Positions 2,833 to 54,503 of a stretch of 62,594 nt of DNA are shown here, one piece after another. A program made the position numbers and the translations under genes. Source of the stretch: Thermomicrobiales bacterium (GTDB lineage: Bacteria > Chloroflexota > Chloroflexia > Thermomicrobiales > UBA6265). Numbering within the stretch: the first letter of the stretch is position 1; every line of letters starts with the position of its first letter. The notes beneath the pieces were generated by a model. That model had not been told where the DNA came from. It searched no databases and saw only the letters and a program-made list of their open reading frames with translations. Where the stretch lies: contig JBBRVX010000003.1 in assembly GCA_038246475.1 (NCBI GenBank), forward strand, positions 1 to 62,594, read 5' to 3'.

Positions 2833-3531
2833 CTAAACCTGTTCGAGGAGCAGAGTTCTCTTCACGTCCTCGATCGTCTTGGTGACCTCGATATCGCGTG
2901 GACACGCTTCCGTGCAGTTGAAGACCGTCCGGCAACGCCAGACCCCGGATTGGGTGTTCAGGATGCGCAAGCGTTCGCTGGCCCCTTCGTCGCGGCTGTC
3001 GTAGATGAAGCGTGCGGCGTTGACGATCGCGGCAGGTCCCACAAAGCTCTCGTTTGTCCAGGTGATGGGGCAGGCCGTGGTGCACGAGGCGCAAAGAATG
3101 CACTTGGTCGTGCTCTCGTATCGCTCGAGCTGTTCCGGGGTTTGCCGCCGCTCCTCAGCCCGCGGGGCGTCTCCGGCGATCAAGTACGGCTTCACCGACT
3201 TGTACCCCGCGAAGAAGGGGTCCATATCGACCACCATATCCTTGATGACGGTGAACCCGATCAAGGGCTCGATGGTGATCTTGTTCCCAAATTCTTTCAT
3301 CAGTGTCTTGCAGGCCAGGTAGTTGCGGCCGTTGATGCGCATGGCATCGGACCCGCAAACGCCATGGGCACAGGAGCGGCGATAGGTGAGGGTTCCGTCC
3401 TCTCGCCACTTGATTTCGTTCAGACCGTCAAGCACACGATCAGATGGCTCAAGTTCAACCTTGTACTCCTTGAAATGGGGTTTGACATCGACATCGGGGT
3501 CGTATCGCTTAATGCGAAACGTGTATTCCAC
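2833..3531 (-). CDS. sdhB: Succinate dehydrogenase iron-sulfur subunit
   Basis: RRSCAHGVCGSD, CILCASCTTACP and CRTVFNCTEACP cluster motifs. Confidence 0.95.
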   Translation of the reverse strand: MEYTFRIKRYDPDVDVKPHFKEYKVELEPSDRVLDGLNEIKWREDGTLTYRRSCAHGVCGSDAMRINGRNYLACKTLMKEFGNKITIEPLIGFTVIKDMVVDMDPFFAGYKSVKPYLIAGDAPRAEERRQTPEQLERYESTTKCILCASCTTACPITWTNESFVGPAAIVNAARFIYDSRDEGASERLRILNTQSGVWRCRTVFNCTEACPRDIEVTKTIEDVKRTLLLEQV

Positions 3532-3605: not shown

Positions 3606-5336
3606 TTAGTATTTTCGTTCCTTTGGCTGAAACTCGGTAATGCTGACACTCTTCTTGGACAAGTTCAGCCCACCGGATGTCTTGCGCAACATTGTGTGCT
3701 TGAGCCAATTGACATCGTCGCGAGTTGGAAAGTCTTCACGGTAGTGCGCGCCGCGGCTCTCTTCCCGGGCCAGCGCCCCGACGACGACCGTCTCCGCGCA
3801 ATCGAGCATGGCGCCGAGTTCCAGCGCCTCGGTGAGATCGGTATTGAAGGTCGTGCCACGGTCGTCGATGCCCGCGCGCGCGTAGCGAGCGCGCAGCTCG
3901 GCGAGCCCACGACTGGCTTCATTCAGGCTCTCGGCGGTGCGAACGACGGAGGCCTTGTCCATCATCATCACCTGCAAGTCGCGCCGTACATCAGCCATGC
4001 GCTCATGCTTCGGCCGCGAGAGAAGATCATGGACCTGGGCGCGGGCGACGAATTCGGGATCGACCGGAAGTGTGGGCAAGTCGGAGTCGTGGACGAAATC
4101 GAGCATGTGGCGACCTGCCCGGCGGCCGAATACGACGAGATCGACCAGGGAGTTCGTTCCCAACCGGTTGGCCCCATGGACCGAAACGCAGGCATTTTCC
4201 CCGGCCGAGTAGAGACCGGTAATGGTGTTTGCGTCAGCATCGCGCAGGACCCGGCCGTCGATGTCGGTCGGTATGCCGCCCATGGCGTAGTGCGCGGTGG
4301 GTTGAATCGGCATCGGGTCGGTTTTGGGCTCGATGCCGAGATACGTTCTGGCGAAGTCGGTAATGTCAGGGAGTTTGGCGTCGATGAGCTCGGGGGGGAG
4401 ATGGGAGAGATCGAGGTGGACATAATCCTTGCCGTCCACACCGCGACCTTCCTTGATTTCCTGGAAGATGAAGCGGGAGACCATATCTCGTGGCGCGAGG
4501 TCTTTCAGGGTGGGAGCGTAGCGCTCGGCGAACGCTTCGCCCAGGCCGTTCCGCAGAATTCCACCTTCGCCGCGGGCCGCCTCCGAGAGGAGGATGCCAA
4601 ACTTGTAAATGCCCGTGGGGTGGAACTGATAGAACTCCATGTCCATCAGCGGCACGCCGCGCCGGAACGGAATGGCAAAGCCGTCCCCGGTGCCCGCCAT
4701 GGCATTTGAGGTGACGCTGAAGATGCGCCCGAATCCGCCGGTGGCCCACAACACGGCCTTGGCATGGATGGTGTGGATTTCGCCAGTCCGCAATTCGAGC
4801 GCGACCACGCCACAGGCGCGTCCGTCTTCGCTGACCAGGAGATCGAGAACGTGATACTCGTCGAGGAAGTTGACGTTGTGCTTGATGCCCTGCTGGTAGA
4901 GAGTCTGCAGGATCATGTGGCCAGTGCGGTCGGCGGCATAACAGGCGCGCTTGACAGGGCCTTCCCCGAAGTTTCTGGTGTGTCCCCCGAATCGACGTTG
5001 ATCCATACGGCCATCGGGGAGCCGGTTGAAGGGGAGGCCCATATGCTCTAACTCAAGGACCGCTTCGACGGCCTCGCGCGTCAAGACCTCCGCGGCATCC
5101 TGGTCGACCAGGTAGTCGCCACCTTTCACGGTGTCGAACATGTGCCACTGCCAGTGGTCCTCTTCAACATTTCCGAGCGCGGCGCTAATGCCGCCCTGGG
5201 CCGCTCCCGTGTGAGACCGGGTGGGATAGAGTTTGCTGACGACCGCGATGTTGGCCTTGCCCGCCATTTGAATCGCCGCCATCAGGCCGGCGCCGCCGGC
5301 GCCGATAATTACCGCGTCGTACCTGTGATACGCCAT
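3606..5336 (-). CDS. sdhA: Succinate dehydrogenase flavoprotein subunit
   Basis: [16 protein letters not shown] (FAD-linked His), QFHPT, HYAMGG, HGANRLG and ESRGAH motifs; start placed at MAYHRYD. Confidence 0.95.
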
Positions 5337-5430
5337 TGTTCGGTCTCCCGATCGACCTTTTGATGCTGACCGGATTCGCGTTGGTGCAACGATTTTCCGC
5401 CGCGGGACACTTTGCTCGACCCAATGGGCA

Positions 5431-5459
5431 AAACTAGCCGGGGAAGAATGGAGTGTCAA
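5431..5459 (-). promoter_or_regulatory. Sigma70-type promoter for sdhAB
   Basis: Minus strand TTGACA-17 nt-TAGTTT about 95 nt upstream of the sdhA start. Confidence 0.6.
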
Positions 5460-5677
5460 GCGCTTTCCCGCGCGACTGCCACATTGGAAGTGCCAAGAGA
5501 CCATGGAGATCGATGCTTGCGGACGTTGCGATCAGGGGCGGCGCGGGTGCGCTGACGTGTGGGAAATTGGTGCTATCATCGCTGGCGTCGCACGGGGATT
5601 GCCTTACTGAGCCCCGGATTGCCGGCGAACGTCACGCTTTTGGAAATCCTCTCTCGAAGTTCGAGTCCGGAGACTCT

Positions 5678-44932: not shown

Positions 44933-46642
44933 TCACCTAGTGGGAGCGTTTTCGCCGCCGCGGCGCAAGAGGCGAATACTCCCGCGGGAGCGTTTGGCAT
45001 GCGACCGACCGAACTCCTGGTATCGATCGTATCGTTCTTTGACGACCCGGTCGATTCTCTTGCGTTGCAGCAGAGACAAGGCATTGCTAATGGATTCCGC
45101 GAGAGCGGATGCCATTGCCTCTGGGTGCGCGCCGATGCCGCCTTCCGGCTCAAGCACGATTTCATCGACGATTGCCATGCGTTTGAGCTCGCGGGCGGTC
45201 AACTTCAGCTTGGTTGAGACCTCCGGAGCGCGCGCAGCGTCTCGATAGAGGATCGTCGCCGCGCCCTCGGGCGCGATGACCGAGTAGATTGAACCTTCAA
45301 GCATGAGTACGCGATCGGCGACGGCGAGGGCAAGTGCCCCACCGCTGCCGCCTTCGCCGATAATGGCAGAAACGATCGGGATGCGCAGCTTGCTCATGCG
45401 GGCAAGGGATGCGGCGATCTCGGCCGCCAGCCCGCGTTCCTCGGATTCGACGCCGGGATAGGCGCCAGGTGTGTCGATGAGGGTGACGAGGGGCAATTCC
45501 AGTCGTTCGGCGAGATCCATGATTCGGCGAGCCTTGCGATACCCTTCAGGGTAGGGGCGTCCATCATGGCGAAGGGCGCGATCTTCCAGATGGCCTCGCT
45601 CCAGCGCCACCACGGCAATTCCCTTGCCATCGAGCATGCCGATGCCCGTAATCACGGCAGGATCATCGCCTGACGAGCGGTCACCATGCAATTCGATGAA
45701 CTCACTGAGCATTAGCTTGATGTAGTCGGAGCTGGTCAACCGATCGCCCGCACGAGAGCGCTGGACGGCGTCCCAGGCGAGAATTTCGGCGCCTGTTTGG
45801 ACACGGCGAAAGCGCCGGCCGCGACGCTGATGCCTGGTCCGGGGTGCAAGAAGCACGGAGAGCACGCGGGCGAGATAGGCCCGTTGCTCGCGGCGATCGA
45901 GAATGGCGTCGACCATGCCGTGCGCCAGCAGAAACTCAGACGTGTGGGAACCGTCAGGAAGCCTGCGACCCATTGCCTGTTCGGCAACGCGGGGGCCGGC
46001 GAATCCGATCAGGGCGCCAGGTTCCGCGATCATAATATCGCCGAGATTCGCAAACGAGGCGAAGACTCCACCGGTCGTCGGGTGAGCAAGGATCGAGATG
46101 TATGGGCATCCTTCCTCGCGCAGGCGCTGAATAGCGGCGGAGGTTTTTGCCATCTGGAGCAACGAAAGCATTCCCTCCTGCATGCGGGCTCCACCACTGG
46201 CGGAGATCGTGATGAGCGGCATCTTTCGGTCACGCGCTCGTTCGGCGATGCGCACCAGCTTCTCGCCGACGACGACGCCCATGCTGCCGCCTAGGAAACC
46301 GAATTCAAGGGCGGCGATGGCAATCGGATGACCATCCAACAGGGCCGTTCCCGAGATGAGCGCATCCGCCTCACCAGTTTCCTTGCGGAGCGCGCGGAGG
46401 CGATCCCGGTAGAGTGTTTCGTCTTCAAAATGGAGCGGGTCCGTGGAAACCAGCCCCATGTCCTGCTCATGGAATGAGCCCGCATCGACAAGGCGCATGA
46501 TTGCGGAACGCGCTGAAGCGCGGCCGTGATATCCGCATACGCCGCACACCTGCACTTCACGATACGTGGGATCGTCAGTGAGTGTCGCTTCGCAGATGGG
46601 ACACCGCGGAGATTCCGGTTCCTCACATCGAGGCGCCGTCAT
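44933..46642 (-). CDS. accDA: Acetyl-CoA carboxylase carboxyltransferase, fused beta-alpha subunits
   Basis: N-terminal CPIC..CGVC zinc finger, GGSMG and SGGARMQEG (beta), then ELHGDR, DTPGA and GEGGSGGA (alpha) in one frame. Confidence 0.92.
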   Translation of the reverse strand: MTAPRCEEPESPRCPICEATLTDDPTYREVQVCGVCGYHGRASARSAIMRLVDAGSFHEQDMGLVSTDPLHFEDETLYRDRLRALRKETGEADALISGTALLDGHPIAIAALEFGFLGGSMGVVVGEKLVRIAERARDRKMPLITISASGGARMQEGMLSLLQMAKTSAAIQRLREEGCPYISILAHPTTGGVFASFANLGDIMIAEPGALIGFAGPRVAEQAMGRRLPDGSHTSEFLLAHGMVDAILDRREQRAYLARVLSVLLAPRTRHQRRGRRFRRVQTGAEILAWDAVQRSRAGDRLTSSDYIKLMLSEFIELHGDRSSGDDPAVITGIGMLDGKGIAVVALERGHLEDRALRHDGRPYPEGYRKARRIMDLAERLELPLVTLIDTPGAYPGVESEERGLAAEIAASLARMSKLRIPIVSAIIGEGGSGGALALAVADRVLMLEGSIYSVIAPEGAATILYRDAARAPEVSTKLKLTARELKRMAIVDEIVLEPEGGIGAHPEAMASALAESISNALSLLQRKRIDRVVKERYDRYQEFGRSHAKRSRGSIRLLRRGGENAPTR

Positions 46643-48941: not shown

Positions 48942-49034
48942 TTGGCTGAATGGAACATTGAGACAGCCACCTGCCGAATTTCGCTAGAGAACCTGGTCGT
49001 TTGATGGCAAGCGAAGGATCTACAGGTGACGCCG

Positions 49035-49556
49035 ATGGACTTTGACGATCCTGAAGACGGCACCCCCGGGATATTGAGTCATTTTGACACCGCCGGACGA
49101 GCGCGGATGGTTGATGTCGGCAAGAAGGAGGAATCGGAGCGCGTCGCCACCGCCACCGGTCGCGTGATGATGCACCCGGAAACCCTCGCACTCATTCGCG
49201 AGGGGAGAATGGCGAAAGGGGACGTGCTGGCGGTAGCCCAGATCGCGGCAGTGATGGGAGCGAAGCGGACGCCGGACATCATTCCGATGTGTCATCCCTT
49301 GATGCTAACCCGCATCGATGTGAACTTCGAGGTTCGAGACGACGACATCGTGATCGAGGCCACGGTCGCAACTCAAGGGCGAACGGGCGTTGAAATGGAG
49401 GCGCTGACGGCTGTAGCGACCGCGGCCCTGACGATATATGACATGGTGAAAGCGGTCGATCGCGGCATGCTCATCAGTGACATTCAATTGGAGCGAAAGG
49501 AGGGAGGGCGCTCAGGACTCTGGATGCGTGAAAGCGAGAGCGATGAACCACGGTAG
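49035..49556 (+). CDS. moaC: Cyclic pyranopterin monophosphate synthase
   Basis: [35 protein letters not shown] and K.GGRSG; start 49026 or 49035. Confidence 0.95.
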
Positions 49557-49666
49557 TCAGTACGGGATGCCAATGTCCATAAAGTCCATTGGGGTGGCGC
49601 GTACAATTCCATCTGGTAGGGGAGCCCGAAAGGGGCTTTACGGCAGCGGATTGAAAGGATGTCTGC

Positions 49667-50563
49667 GTGGCATCGGTTGCAGAGCAGCGGCCCGTCGGAG
49701 GCGCTGGAGTCACGATACCGGGATCGGAGCGCCTGGTCTGGTACTTCATGCGGATTTCGGGTGCGCTTCTGATCCTGCTGGCGGGCGGTCATCTGTTCAT
49801 CACGCACTTTCTGAATGTGCCGTCGGATACAACGTTCGCATTTGTGGCCAATCGTTGGGCAAATCCATACTGGCGGACGTTTGACTGGCTTCTCCTGATG
49901 ATGGCCCTGTGGCATGGCGTACTTGGTTTGCGCTACTCCATCCAGGACTATCTTCGTTCGCCCATGGCGCGAACCTTGGCGCAAGGCGTGATGTGGGCCC
50001 TGGGCGTGGTGTTCTTCGCCCTGGGGTCGGTGACCATTTTTACGTTTGATCAAACCGCGGCGGCGGCGAACGACGGGCCGTTGGCAGGGCAACTCTGGAT
50101 CGCGGATGCCATTGGGTACTCACTGTATGCGTTCGCCATCGTCACGTACGTTGGCATTGCGCTATTGATCGTTTGGGTGGCCCGGTCGCTGATGCGAGGA
50201 GTGGTTCCCATTTATAGCGGTGGAAGTGGGCAATATGCCTGGGTCCTGCATCGGGCATCAGGGATAGGGGTGCTGTTCTTCCTGCTCGTTCACATCATCG
50301 ATATCTCGCTGATTGGCCTCGGGCGCGACATCTATGACATTTCCGTGGAGTTTTACGCGCAGCCTGGTTTGCTGCCGATGGAGGTGCTTCTGGTCGGCGC
50401 CGTCATCTATCACTCACTGAACGGAATCCGGGTGATGACGATTGATTTCACCAGGGAAGGGTACCGCCGCGAACGCGCATCGTTCGCCGCCGTGATGATT
50501 CTGACGATTCTCCTGACGTTGCCGAGTGCCTGGATCATTTTTCGAACTGAGCTCATGCCCTGA
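49667..50563 (+). CDS. Succinate dehydrogenase membrane anchor, SdhD-SdhC fusion
   Basis: N-half W.FMR.SG..L...GH...WHG..G.R....DY (SdhD-like); C-half Y.G..G...W.LHR.SG...VH..D...YH.LNG.R...DF (SdhC-like); GTG after AAGGA. Confidence 0.85.
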   Translation: MASVAEQRPVGGAGVTIPGSERLVWYFMRISGALLILLAGGHLFITHFLNVPSDTTFAFVANRWANPYWRTFDWLLLMMALWHGVLGLRYSIQDYLRSPMARTLAQGVMWALGVVFFALGSVTIFTFDQTAAAANDGPLAGQLWIADAIGYSLYAFAIVTYVGIALLIVWVARSLMRGVVPIYSGGSGQYAWVLHRASGIGVLFFLLVHIIDISLIGLGRDIYDISVEFYAQPGLLPMEVLLVGAVIYHSLNGIRVMTIDFTREGYRRERASFAAVMILTILLTLPSAWIIFRTELMP

Positions 50564-52316: not shown

Positions 52317-53798
52317 GTGGATCGAGGAGACCCCAGCGCGCAGGTTCAGGTTGATGCCAACCTGATCTGGCGAGCGGTCCTATCCGATCTCCAGTCGACG
52401 CTCCCCGCGAGCGCCTTCGAATGGCTCCGAAACACCCGGCTGACCGGATTTGCGGCAAATGACGTTGCCACTGTGCAGGTGACGGATCGCGTGGCGGCTG
52501 ATACGCTGACTCGCCGTTTCGCACGCGATATCGAACGGCAACTGTCTCAGCGCGTGGGACGCCCGGTGACCACCGAGTTTCTGGCGGACGCCGCTGAGAG
52601 CAGTGGAGCATCAGCATCGGTCGAAAGGACACCACCCAGACCCCGTGCCAATAGGGCGCCAGGCGAGCAGGACGCAAACCGTCGCGCATCAGAGTCGGCT
52701 CCGGCGAACAAGGCCGGCCATGCGCGGGACAAGCCGACCCAGATGGAACTGGCGCCCTCGCGCGCGCTTGGCCTCAATCCAAGATACGTGCTTCGCACGT
52801 ATGTCGTGGGATCGGCGAATCGATTCGCACATGCAGCGGGCGTGTCGGTCGCCGAGCATCCCGGGGGCAAGTACAACCCGCTCTTCATTCATGGTGGGGT
52901 CGGCCTGGGAAAGACTCATCTCCTCCATGCCGTCGGTCATCGCGCGCTCGATCTCAACGCGAGTCTGCAGGTGGCGTATGTCACATCGGAAAAGTTCACT
53001 AACGATTTGATCGCCTCGATCCGGCAGCAACGCACGGATGACTTCCGTGCTCGCTATCGAGAGATTGACGTGCTGATGATCGATGATATCCAGTTCATCG
53101 CGGGTAAGGAGAGTACACAGGAAGAGTTCTTTCACACGTTCAATGCCCTCTATCAAAGTGGCAAGCAAGTGATCATTTCCAGTGACAAGCCACCCAAGGC
53201 GATTTCGGCGCTGGAGGAACGATTGCGTTCTCGCTTCGAAGGTGGTTTGATCGCCGACGTTCAGCCGCCAGACTATGAGATGCGCCTCGCGATTTTGCGG
53301 ATCAAGGATGAAGAGTTGCGCCTTGGGTTGCAATCGGACGTTGCCGAGTACATCGCCCAGAAAGATCTCCGAAACATTCGAGAGCTCGAAGGGGCGCTGA
53401 ACAAGGTCATCGCGAGAGCCCAGCTCACCGGAGAGTCAATTACTCTCAATCTGGCGATCGAGGCACTCACGGACAATGCGCCGGGCAGCCGGCGATCCGC
53501 GGTGACGCGAGACGAAGTCATCGGGGAAGTTCTCAAGCACTTCGATGTTGCGCGGCGTGAATTGGCCGGGCGTTCGCGGACCAAGGACATCGTCTTGCCG
53601 CGACAGGTTGCAATGTACCTGCTGCGGACAGAAACGGATGCATCCCTCCTCGAAATTGGGTCTGAACTGGGGGGCCGTGACCACACGACGGTGCTTCACG
53701 GAATTCGGCAGATCGAACGAGCCTTTGCGACCGACGCTTCGCTGCGTGCCCATGTCGTGGCGATCCGGGAATCGATCGTCACCGGAGGTGCTTCATAG
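52317..53798 (+). CDS. dnaA: Chromosomal replication initiator DnaA (possibly a paralog)
   Basis: YNPLFIHGGVGLGKTHL, IDDIQF, QEEFFH.FN, RLRSRF, NIRELEGAL, RQVAMYL and GGRDHTTV. Confidence 0.95.
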   Translation: MDRGDPSAQVQVDANLIWRAVLSDLQSTLPASAFEWLRNTRLTGFAANDVATVQVTDRVAADTLTRRFARDIERQLSQRVGRPVTTEFLADAAESSGASASVERTPPRPRANRAPGEQDANRRASESAPANKAGHARDKPTQMELAPSRALGLNPRYVLRTYVVGSANRFAHAAGVSVAEHPGGKYNPLFIHGGVGLGKTHLLHAVGHRALDLNASLQVAYVTSEKFTNDLIASIRQQRTDDFRARYREIDVLMIDDIQFIAGKESTQEEFFHTFNALYQSGKQVIISSDKPPKAISALEERLRSRFEGGLIADVQPPDYEMRLAILRIKDEELRLGLQSDVAEYIAQKDLRNIRELEGALNKVIARAQLTGESITLNLAIEALTDNAPGSRRSAVTRDEVIGEVLKHFDVARRELAGRSRTKDIVLPRQVAMYLLRTETDASLLEIGSELGGRDHTTVLHGIRQIERAFATDASLRAHVVAIRESIVTGGAS

Positions 53799-53918
53799 AC
53801 GTATCGAAAAAGAGACCACTTGACTTTCCACAGGATAATTGAGTGGTCCCCTGTGGCAGACGAAAACCCAGCAAATGAACTGTCGACGAAATGCGTGATG
53901 GGGCAACCCCTTGAGGCG

Positions 53919-54389
53919 CTAACTTCCCGGCGATGAAACCAGATACGCGGACAGGTCGAGCACCTGTTTATCGCTGATTTCAGTCACTTTGTAGGCGCCT
54001 GGAGGCGTATGGCCGGCGCCTTCTCGAACGAGGGCGAGAAGAAAATCCGGATCTGCTGTCGCCCCGGCGGAGCCGGTCGCGAGAATGTCCGGACCCGATC
54101 CGCCGGGCCCATGGCAGCCAGTACACCACGTGTCAAACTGACGCTTGCCGGCGGTGACATCTCCATGCACCGCGGCGCTGGGCGAGCTTTGGGCGAGTTG
54201 CCGTGCGGCCGAGGTGGCGCTGGCGGCCGCGGCGGCGGCGGTGATCTGCTCCGCGGTGAGTGTCGCGGTGGGCGTAATGCCGAGAGCCTGGTTGATTTGC
54301 TCATCGGTGGCGCGGCCGCAGGCCGCGGCAATCAGCGCCACCGCAATCACGGTGGCCATGAGCGAGAGCCGTCGAGGCAAGGTCGTCAT
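53919..54389 (-). CDS. Lipoprotein c-type cytochrome
   Basis: Signal peptide ending IAAAC (lipobox); G...F...CTGCHG heme motif; C-terminal ISD..V.DL.AYL helix. Confidence 0.8.
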
Positions 54390-54503
54390 CCTGTCACGAT
54401 CGTAGCCCGGCGCGTAGTCACTGCTGCACATCGCCGATGCATTGCTTCACCAACCTGGGTGAGCGGAGGGTATCAAGGCCGTGGGCGAGTGTCAATCATC
54501 GAG

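Follow-up and report, generated by a model that had tools for sequence, protein, structure and literature searches.

A reverse-ordered SdhD–SdhC fusion with an added membrane helix as a probable single-chain diheme anchor of complex II in a Thermomicrobiales bacterium

The window analysed here (62,594 nucleotides from a Thermomicrobiales bacterium, contig JBBRVX010000003.1, positions 1 to 62,594, to which all coordinates refer unless a locus or contig handle precedes them) raises the question of how its succinate dehydrogenase is held in the membrane. The flavoprotein gene sdhA (3606..5336, reverse strand; TIGR01816 sdhA_forward, 842 bits, cut-off 727) and the iron-sulfur subunit gene sdhB (2833..3531, reverse strand; NF004616, 331 bits, cut-off 228) are adjoined by no anchor gene, and 44.3 kb away lies a single ORF in which both halves of a two-chain anchor are joined in reverse order through an extra predicted membrane helix, here called T. 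A low-complexity repeat just downstream of sdhB (2421–2800), with peptide units repeated in several frames, is possibly a structured RNA or a tandem repeat.

The fused gene (49667..50563, forward strand) encodes 298 aa from a GTG start and has no internal stop; a putative Shine-Dalgarno sequence, AAAGGA (49654..49659, forward strand), lies 7 nt 5' of the GTG. The sequence motifs quoted in a first-pass annotation of this DNA are all present in the ORF. Of the two NCBIfam models, TIGR02968 (SdhD) matches residues 25–124 (56.1 bits, cut-off 41.8) and TIGR02970 (SdhC) residues 187–285 (72.1 bits, cut-off 52.3), and hence the order is D then C, as that annotation had proposed; a C-then-D result was not seen. 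When the single protein was searched against the sequences in the PDB, the sole matches were to two chains of Mycobacterium smegmatis Sdh2, 6lum_D (residues 17–130) and 6lum_C (182–287). On this evidence and that of a structural model, the SdhD half comprises helices IV–VI (residues 20–125; 49724..50041, forward strand) and the SdhC half helices I–III (residues 187–296; 50225..50554, forward strand). The GC3 values of the D, T and C parts (0.69, 0.74 and 0.70) are alike and therefore give no compositional hint of a foreign linker. No promoter-like site was found near the gene and terminators near it were not above chance. The gene follows moaC (49026..49556, forward strand; PF01967) in 29 of 38 loci, though no functional link is implied.

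Further features of the window may be recorded. In the region 52317–54431, 1.8 kb past the anchor gene on its downstream side and beyond pepA, dnaA is followed by a monoheme cytochrome c gene whose product has a lipoprotein-like N-terminus, an order kept in close relatives. On the reverse strand, a 569-aa ORF (44933–46642) appears by eye to be a fusion of the beta and alpha acetyl-CoA carboxylase carboxyltransferase subunits.

An AlphaFold2 model of the anchor, built with 73 sequences (pLDDT 88.2, pTM 0.85), has seven long helices (residues 20–48, 67–95, 99–125, 144–176, 187–217, 233–261 and 266–296), and hydropathy at a threshold of 1.2 gives seven hydrophobic peaks, that of helix V reaching only 1.3, in agreement with the seven helices counted previously. 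An alignment-free fold was poor (pLDDT 49.9) and was set aside. The D half of the model superposes on 6lum_D (Z 17.1, rmsd 1.0 Å, 117 residues) and Foldseek aligned the model to 6lum_C with an rmsd of 1.6 Å. The whole model aligns to single-chain diheme anchors over 187–200 residues across both halves, with an rmsd of 4.3–5.9 Å and a Z of 10.3–12.1, which for these type B anchors is in the range that chance can give for helical bundles and is not decisive; the alignment suggests that the two halves would form the usual four-helix heme bundle. With loop limits taken from the model, the K+R count averages 12.5 for the side predicted to lie inside and 4.3 for the outside, and inner exceeds outer in 73/73 homologues. 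The predicted topology is thus N-in/C-out. Because the SdhD and SdhC halves both start inside, a membrane crossing is needed between them, and helix T provides one: it would lead the polypeptide from helix VI, which ends outside, back to helix I, which begins inside. The earlier idea that the added helix restores an N-in start for the C half is borne out by the charge bias, which fits in all 73.

In M. smegmatis Sdh2, His D107 and His C87 ligate the proximal heme and His D65 and His C47 the distal heme (Gong et al., PMC7447783). The corresponding residues of the window protein are His83 (49913..49915; also E. coli SdhD His71) and His249 (50411..50413), the predicted proximal ligands, and His42 (49790..49792) and His209 (50291..50293), the predicted distal ligands, all on the forward strand and placed by alignment. 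Each of the four is invariant in 73/73 homologues, and the anchor likely holds two hemes. The first-pass annotation had named these four histidines but had missed a fifth, His47 (49805..49807, forward strand), near the outer face and also invariant in 73/73. R63, the equivalent of Arg D87, a partner of the distal heme propionate, is likewise invariant, and W64 (Trp D88) is kept in 72/73.

The proximal quinone site, judged from residue conservation, looks weakened or degraded in the fused anchors. The position of E. coli Ser27, placed via the His30-Arg31 register (PMC2785890), is Trp in 72/73 homologues and that of E. coli Tyr83 is Tyr in just 56/73. Glu D86, the proposed proton entry point in M. 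smegmatis, is not kept, position 62 being Ala in 29, Gly in 13, Asn in 8, Asp in 8 and Gln in 4 of the 73, and the distal proton path must therefore differ from that of M. smegmatis. Candidate substitutes for Glu D86 are D/E54 (70/73), D73 (72/73), E239 (73/73) and H47.

Helix T (residues 144–176 in the model; 50096..50194, forward strand), predicted to run from outside to inside, is preceded by a conserved N-x-G-P-L loop and ends about 10 residues ahead of helix I. Its conserved residues are W144, L153, A157, Y161 and W170, of which Y161 is invariant and L153, A157 and W170 are nearly so, and its conservation has helical periodicity (p=0.010), as does that of helix III (p=0.006). Structural alignments to E. 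coli SdhC begin at model residues 172–176 against chain residue 11, just before the proximal site, which places the inner end of T near that site. In Sdh2, the proximal site is blocked by the small subunit SdhF, which touches SdhB as well as helices I and V (PMC7447783). This geometry, together with the conserved face of the helix, makes an SdhF-like position plausible, and T may pack between helices I and V, in the groove from which SdhF obstructs the proximal quinone site; this is the least certain element of our reading, and we regard it as slightly short of an even call.

The source of T was sought in several collections. A profile of T found no similar chain in the PDB and no match to 6LUM at E up to 10, short helices being hard to match; in Pfam there were weak unrelated matches only; no T-like protein of 24–90 aa was found at E up to 1; and in five split-anchor genomes (three of the same order and two of the same class) none was found, the best E being 0.04. 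A free SdhF-like protein as the source of T was thus not found in the PDB, Pfam, small proteins or split-anchor genomes.

The strongest competing interpretation is that T is a mere topological spacer at the periphery, off the SdhF groove, and that the proximal quinone site is usable, as in the type B enzyme of Chloroflexus aurantiacus. We take this to be a serious possibility, one that falls somewhat below even. No SdhF similarity was found for T, and its overall conservation is no better than that of the peripheral helices (mean entropy 1.44 for T, 1.26 for III and 1.43 for VI). The window protein has the proximal-site residues Y95 and R196, and C. aurantiacus SDH, a class B enzyme, is described as binding menaquinone at both sites (PMC12663545). 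Moreover, the extra helices of the fusions of opposite order described below are unlike T (hhalign probability 0.6–1.1 %), indicating that many helices can serve as connector. A spacer sits less easily with the spacing from W170 to H195, fixed at 25–26 residues in 73/73 homologues, with the invariance of Y161 and near-invariance of L153, A157 and W170, with the point at which the alignments to E. coli SdhC open, and with the homology of the T helices of two D-T-C subgroups from distant clades (98.7 %).

It is also conceivable, though we judge it improbable, that one precursor yields two working pieces, either by a cut in the outer loop to give SdhD and a four-helix T-SdhC or by domain swapping in a trimer, the D half of one chain joining up with the C half of the next. 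After helix VI, the window protein and 36/73 homologues carry an A-x-A motif that the other 37/73 lack; a free four-helix T-SdhC occurs in another lineage; and related enzymes are trimers whose protomers meet at helices V and VI (PMC7447783). Against this, the loop is near-constant in length and has a pLDDT above 90, and the single chain folds confidently.

Which dehydrogenase the fused anchor serves must be judged from the genome. The assembly is 90.8 % complete and contains one forward-type SdhA, one SdhB and one such gene pair. It also contains MenD and MenB above their cut-offs and heme-copper oxidase subunit I. The SdhA carries the motif SHTGAAQGG, in which the Gln matches the one that marks the oxidising direction, as cited by Gong et al. 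(PMC7447783). No second anchor was detected in the assembly by tblastn, the family HMMs, broader HMMs, PF01127 or TIGR02046, in line with the previous remark that sdhAB lies 44 kb off and is adjoined by no anchor gene; the canonical sdhCD elsewhere in the genome that would have told against the first-pass annotation did not turn up in these searches.

Between sdhA and a divergent M20 peptidase gene there is an empty slot of ~340 bp (5337..5677), which is where the sister families place sdhC and sdhD. Among 46 genomes of two sister families (f2 and f3), 45 match the anchor, in half-length matches only, and the loci inspected (6 of the 45) all have the order sdhC-sdhD-sdhA-sdhB, divergent from M20 peptidase and DinG genes, with 1.0–1.3 kb from the start of sdhA to that of M20 in the 5 of 6 where it could be estimated. 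In the family of the window genome, an anchor lies within 1.5 kb of sdhA in 0/30 loci (one with only 4 bp upstream and one from the unpublished genome G194), the M20 gene is still divergent from sdhA in 26/30, within 400 bp in 20 of these, and in none of 38 loci does the fused gene lie close to sdhA or sdhB. The anchor has left its ancestral slot beside sdhA. With a sole anchor and a vacated slot, the simplest reading is that the fused anchor still serves the SdhAB encoded 44 kb off, a pairing that the genome context makes likely.

Two observations on related loci are noted separately. In five loci (L122, L125, L132, L135 and L146) the gap between sdhA and M20 is 0.8–1.2 kb with no anchor match, and two genomes of one genus carry tandem SdhA-like genes (G196:C2:181972-185604 and G132:C30:18360-22035) with 70–72 % and 63–64 % identity to the window SdhA.

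Our preferred interpretation, which we hold with considerable confidence, is that the reverse-fused SdhD-T-SdhC is the single-chain diheme anchor of a succinate:menaquinone oxidoreductase and binds the SdhA and SdhB encoded 44 kb off. The opposing view, that the fused protein serves another dehydrogenase and the anchor of SdhAB is unassembled or unrecognised, draws on the separation of the genes, which are adjacent in none of the 38 loci, on the incompleteness of the assembly, and on three genomes (G441, G388 and G313) in which the anchor follows a TfrA-like gene. We consider it very unlikely, given that none of the 30 sdhA loci has an anchor, that the second SdhA-like protein of the window genome looks by eye like L-aspartate oxidase and has no adjoining SdhB, and that there is exactly one anchor match in 59/60 family genomes, the exception, G288, having two, of which the one listed is a contig-end fragment.

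The fusion is a property of the family. In a survey of 301 genomes of the class, one match across both halves was found in 60/62 other same-family genomes (59/61 without the unpublished G194), and therefore the fusion is not an assembly artefact; the two misses are in genomes 82 % and 75 % complete. A stop falls inside the match in 4 rows, and G214, the one examined, has an intact 296-aa ORF. Those relatives that carry a name are MAGs of Thermomicrobiales, Chloroflexia or Chloroflexota. A misassembly, or the recent loss of a stop codon between two genes, can be dismissed as the source of the single ORF, since the first-pass annotation's own caveat that relatives might show two separate ORFs did not materialise: one locus in 38 is frameshifted, yet the open fusion spans many genera at 50–89 % identity with a conserved linker, and the split genes of the sister families are in the opposite order, C then D. 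In the frameshifted locus (L010:6001-6893) the matches to the neighbouring pepA and lgt are broken up as well, suggesting sequencing error there.

Other fusions were sought by running a profile against 1.84 billion cluster representatives, and the best 150 of 1828 matches, which were examined, include 4 full D-first fusions, 3 D-plus-T fragments and 23 C-first fusions. From the C-first set 12/23 were retained, together with one genome example, and 11 were left out as apparently truncated, chimeric or frameshifted. The retained proteins (284–421 aa; P0127, P0129, P0132, P0134, P0140-P0144, P0187, P0189, P0198 and, in G329, L098:5398-6618) have two hydrophobic peaks, helix III and an extra one, before the D half (10/10 that were pattern-parsed, the other 3 being the same). 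Seven-helix fusions of the opposite order, C-T-D, therefore exist on sequence evidence; some bear large outer-loop inserts, and in G329 the gene lies directly 5' of sdhA-sdhB. The earlier description of a different anchor solution thus stands for the permuted D-T-C order, but not for the extra helix as unique to it. Several independent origins of the C-T-D fusions were considered and are unsupported, as a single clade was not rejected (p-AU 0.46).

A four-helix T-SdhC with the extra helix at its N-terminus was also found, represented by P0172 and P0194. The standalone genes (L149-L187 for the P0172 family, and P0194) lie, at several loci, downstream of two ATPase genes that look ArsA-like by eye, and neither sdhD, sdhA nor sdhB was found near them in any of the 39 P0172-family metagenome loci with an SdhC match, many of which are short. 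Most of the Atlas clusters that share this length come from Actinomycetota, which is a lead only. Descent of D-T-C from T-SdhC is compatible with the data (p-AU 0.74; helix similarity 41 % against ≤1.1 % for controls). One branch of the C-half tree (SH-aLRT 97) separates all 26 D-T-C rows from the rest, and the D-half data do not reject a single D-T-C grouping (p-AU 0.91); in this and the T-SdhC descent test the free quick trees were outscored by the constrained ones and are therefore suboptimal. Taken with the homology of T between the two subgroups, these results indicate that the D-T-C fusion likely arose once.

In a sample of the phylum, 159/401 genomes match, and 30 loci and 15 regions were inspected. 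The second D-T-C subgroup is found in operons (L091:1105-6084 in G441, L092:1388-6442 in G388 and L094:1002-6687 in G313) with the order fumarate-hydratase-type alpha, beta, a TfrA-like flavoprotein, SdhB and then the D-T-C anchor. The flavoprotein best matches NF004900 at 560–574 bits, below the cut-off of 718, with SGCT replacing SHT, and the operon may encode a membrane-bound TfrA-type enzyme for some dicarboxylate. Two of the three loci also have ABC-transporter-like genes on the other strand. The subgroup is patchy, being present in 2/6 genomes in the order of G313. As the same fused anchor accompanies a TfrA-like protein and SdhB in other Chloroflexota, the gene appears portable, and as its partner flavoprotein differs there, the anchor by itself does not reveal what it pairs with. 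Hence the link to SdhAB drawn by the first-pass annotation is upheld by context in the window genome, while the fused gene is not tied to this type of SdhAB. In G030, from another order (L050 and L107), a fused anchor occurs with an sdhAB that has no adjoining anchor. The SdhA of G030 groups as sister (support 100) to the one from a genome of the same family that has a split operon, and the other sampled members of that family have split genes. This suggests that in G030 a split anchor may have been replaced by a transferred fused gene, with the caveat that G030 is a MAG with 5 % contamination. Separately, second divergent sdhAB-type operons at L093, L095 and L096, in several Chloroflexota, adjoin canonical sdhCD(AB), and the L093 flavoprotein passes PRK07803.

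Among known anchors, the closest is that of Sdh2 (6LUM; SdhC, SdhD and SdhF), a class A enzyme of a menaquinone host, which is the best match for both halves (36–37 % identity, rmsd 1.0–1.7 Å) and shares with the window anchor the SdhC-type and SdhD-type three-helix units, the four heme histidines and a total of seven membrane helices per protomer. It differs in having three membrane chains rather than one, the seventh helix of the window anchor being covalent and giving no sequence match to SdhF in the profile search; in the window, moreover, Glu D86 is unconserved and the anchor gene is detached from sdhAB. In the sister Thermomicrobiales families the halves are 42–49 % identical to the window anchor and the M20-DinG neighbourhood of sdhAB is shared, but there are two genes, C then D, in an operon, and T was found in none of the 5 split-anchor genomes searched with its profile. 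E. coli SdhCDAB (1NEK, class C) has the same fold per half (Z 11–12), and its His71, Asp82-Tyr83 and His30-Arg31 positions map onto the window anchor, but it has one heme, a proximal ubiquinone site and two chains, without the distal histidines.

The class B anchors (Wolinella FrdC, Desulfovibrio gigas FrdC and C. aurantiacus SdhC, 9LAY) are single chains with two hemes, and heme is predicted in the window anchor also; however, they have five helices rather than seven, share 11–15 % identity over the 187–200 aligned residues, and belong to the b558 family TIGR02046, for which the window anchor scores 15.2 bits against a cut-off of 96. Class B is regarded as a C-then-D fusion in which one helix was lost. 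M. smegmatis Sdh1 (7D6V, class F), like the window anchor, has a single membrane subunit, but with six helices and a membrane Rieske cluster, whereas the window anchor has seven helices, zero cysteines and histidines that match heme ligands; neither the sequence nor the fold searches gave an Sdh1-like match to it.

Complex II is classified by its anchor into six classes, A–F, in which class A has two three-helix chains, some with SdhF, class B one five-helix chain and class F one six-helix chain with a Rieske cluster, and none of these, as set out in PMC10238741, has a seven-helix single chain. The fused anchor likely works like class A yet fails its two-chain criterion. A D-C or seven-helix fusion is not described in the literature searched, the available parts of PMC4239112 and PMC5874750 mentioning none beyond Sdh1; Karavaeva and Sousa 2023 (35,000 assemblies, BBA Bioenergetics 148916), which falls outside that search, may list some.

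The chemistry of the enzyme is probably ordinary. By analogy with Sdh2, electrons from succinate would enter at FAD, run along three Fe-S clusters and reach first heme bP (H83/H249), next heme bD (H42/H209) and finally menaquinone near the outer face, the reduction of which would be uphill and paid for by the proton motive force, as proposed for Sdh2. The conservation of R63 and W64 and the weakened look of the proximal site favour this route, and the loss of Glu D86 speaks against it. The history would comprise one fusion, exit from the sdhCDAB operon and later reuse elsewhere. Anchor sequences of this kind are already in databases under automatic names, and annotation pipelines label the fused protein by one half only, so genomes may seem to lack sdhD or to carry an orphan sdhAB.

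Joining two three-helix units requires a parity fix, and an added helix, in either order, is an alternative to the five-helix solution of class B. We tentatively propose, as a wider reading about which we remain doubtful, that seven-helix single-chain diheme anchors are an unrecognised seventh design reached at least twice (D-T-C and C-T-D), that the D-T-C helix acts as a built-in SdhF which plugs the proximal site and forces distal menaquinone reduction driven by the proton motive force, and that the one-gene anchor is portable, having left its operon, replaced a split anchor and been taken up by a TfrA-like flavoprotein. An anchor encoded by one gene is easily expressed, and if T sits at the place of SdhF, the fused anchors would offer a naturally occurring, stoichiometric test of the reason for which the proximal site is blocked in menaquinone enzymes.
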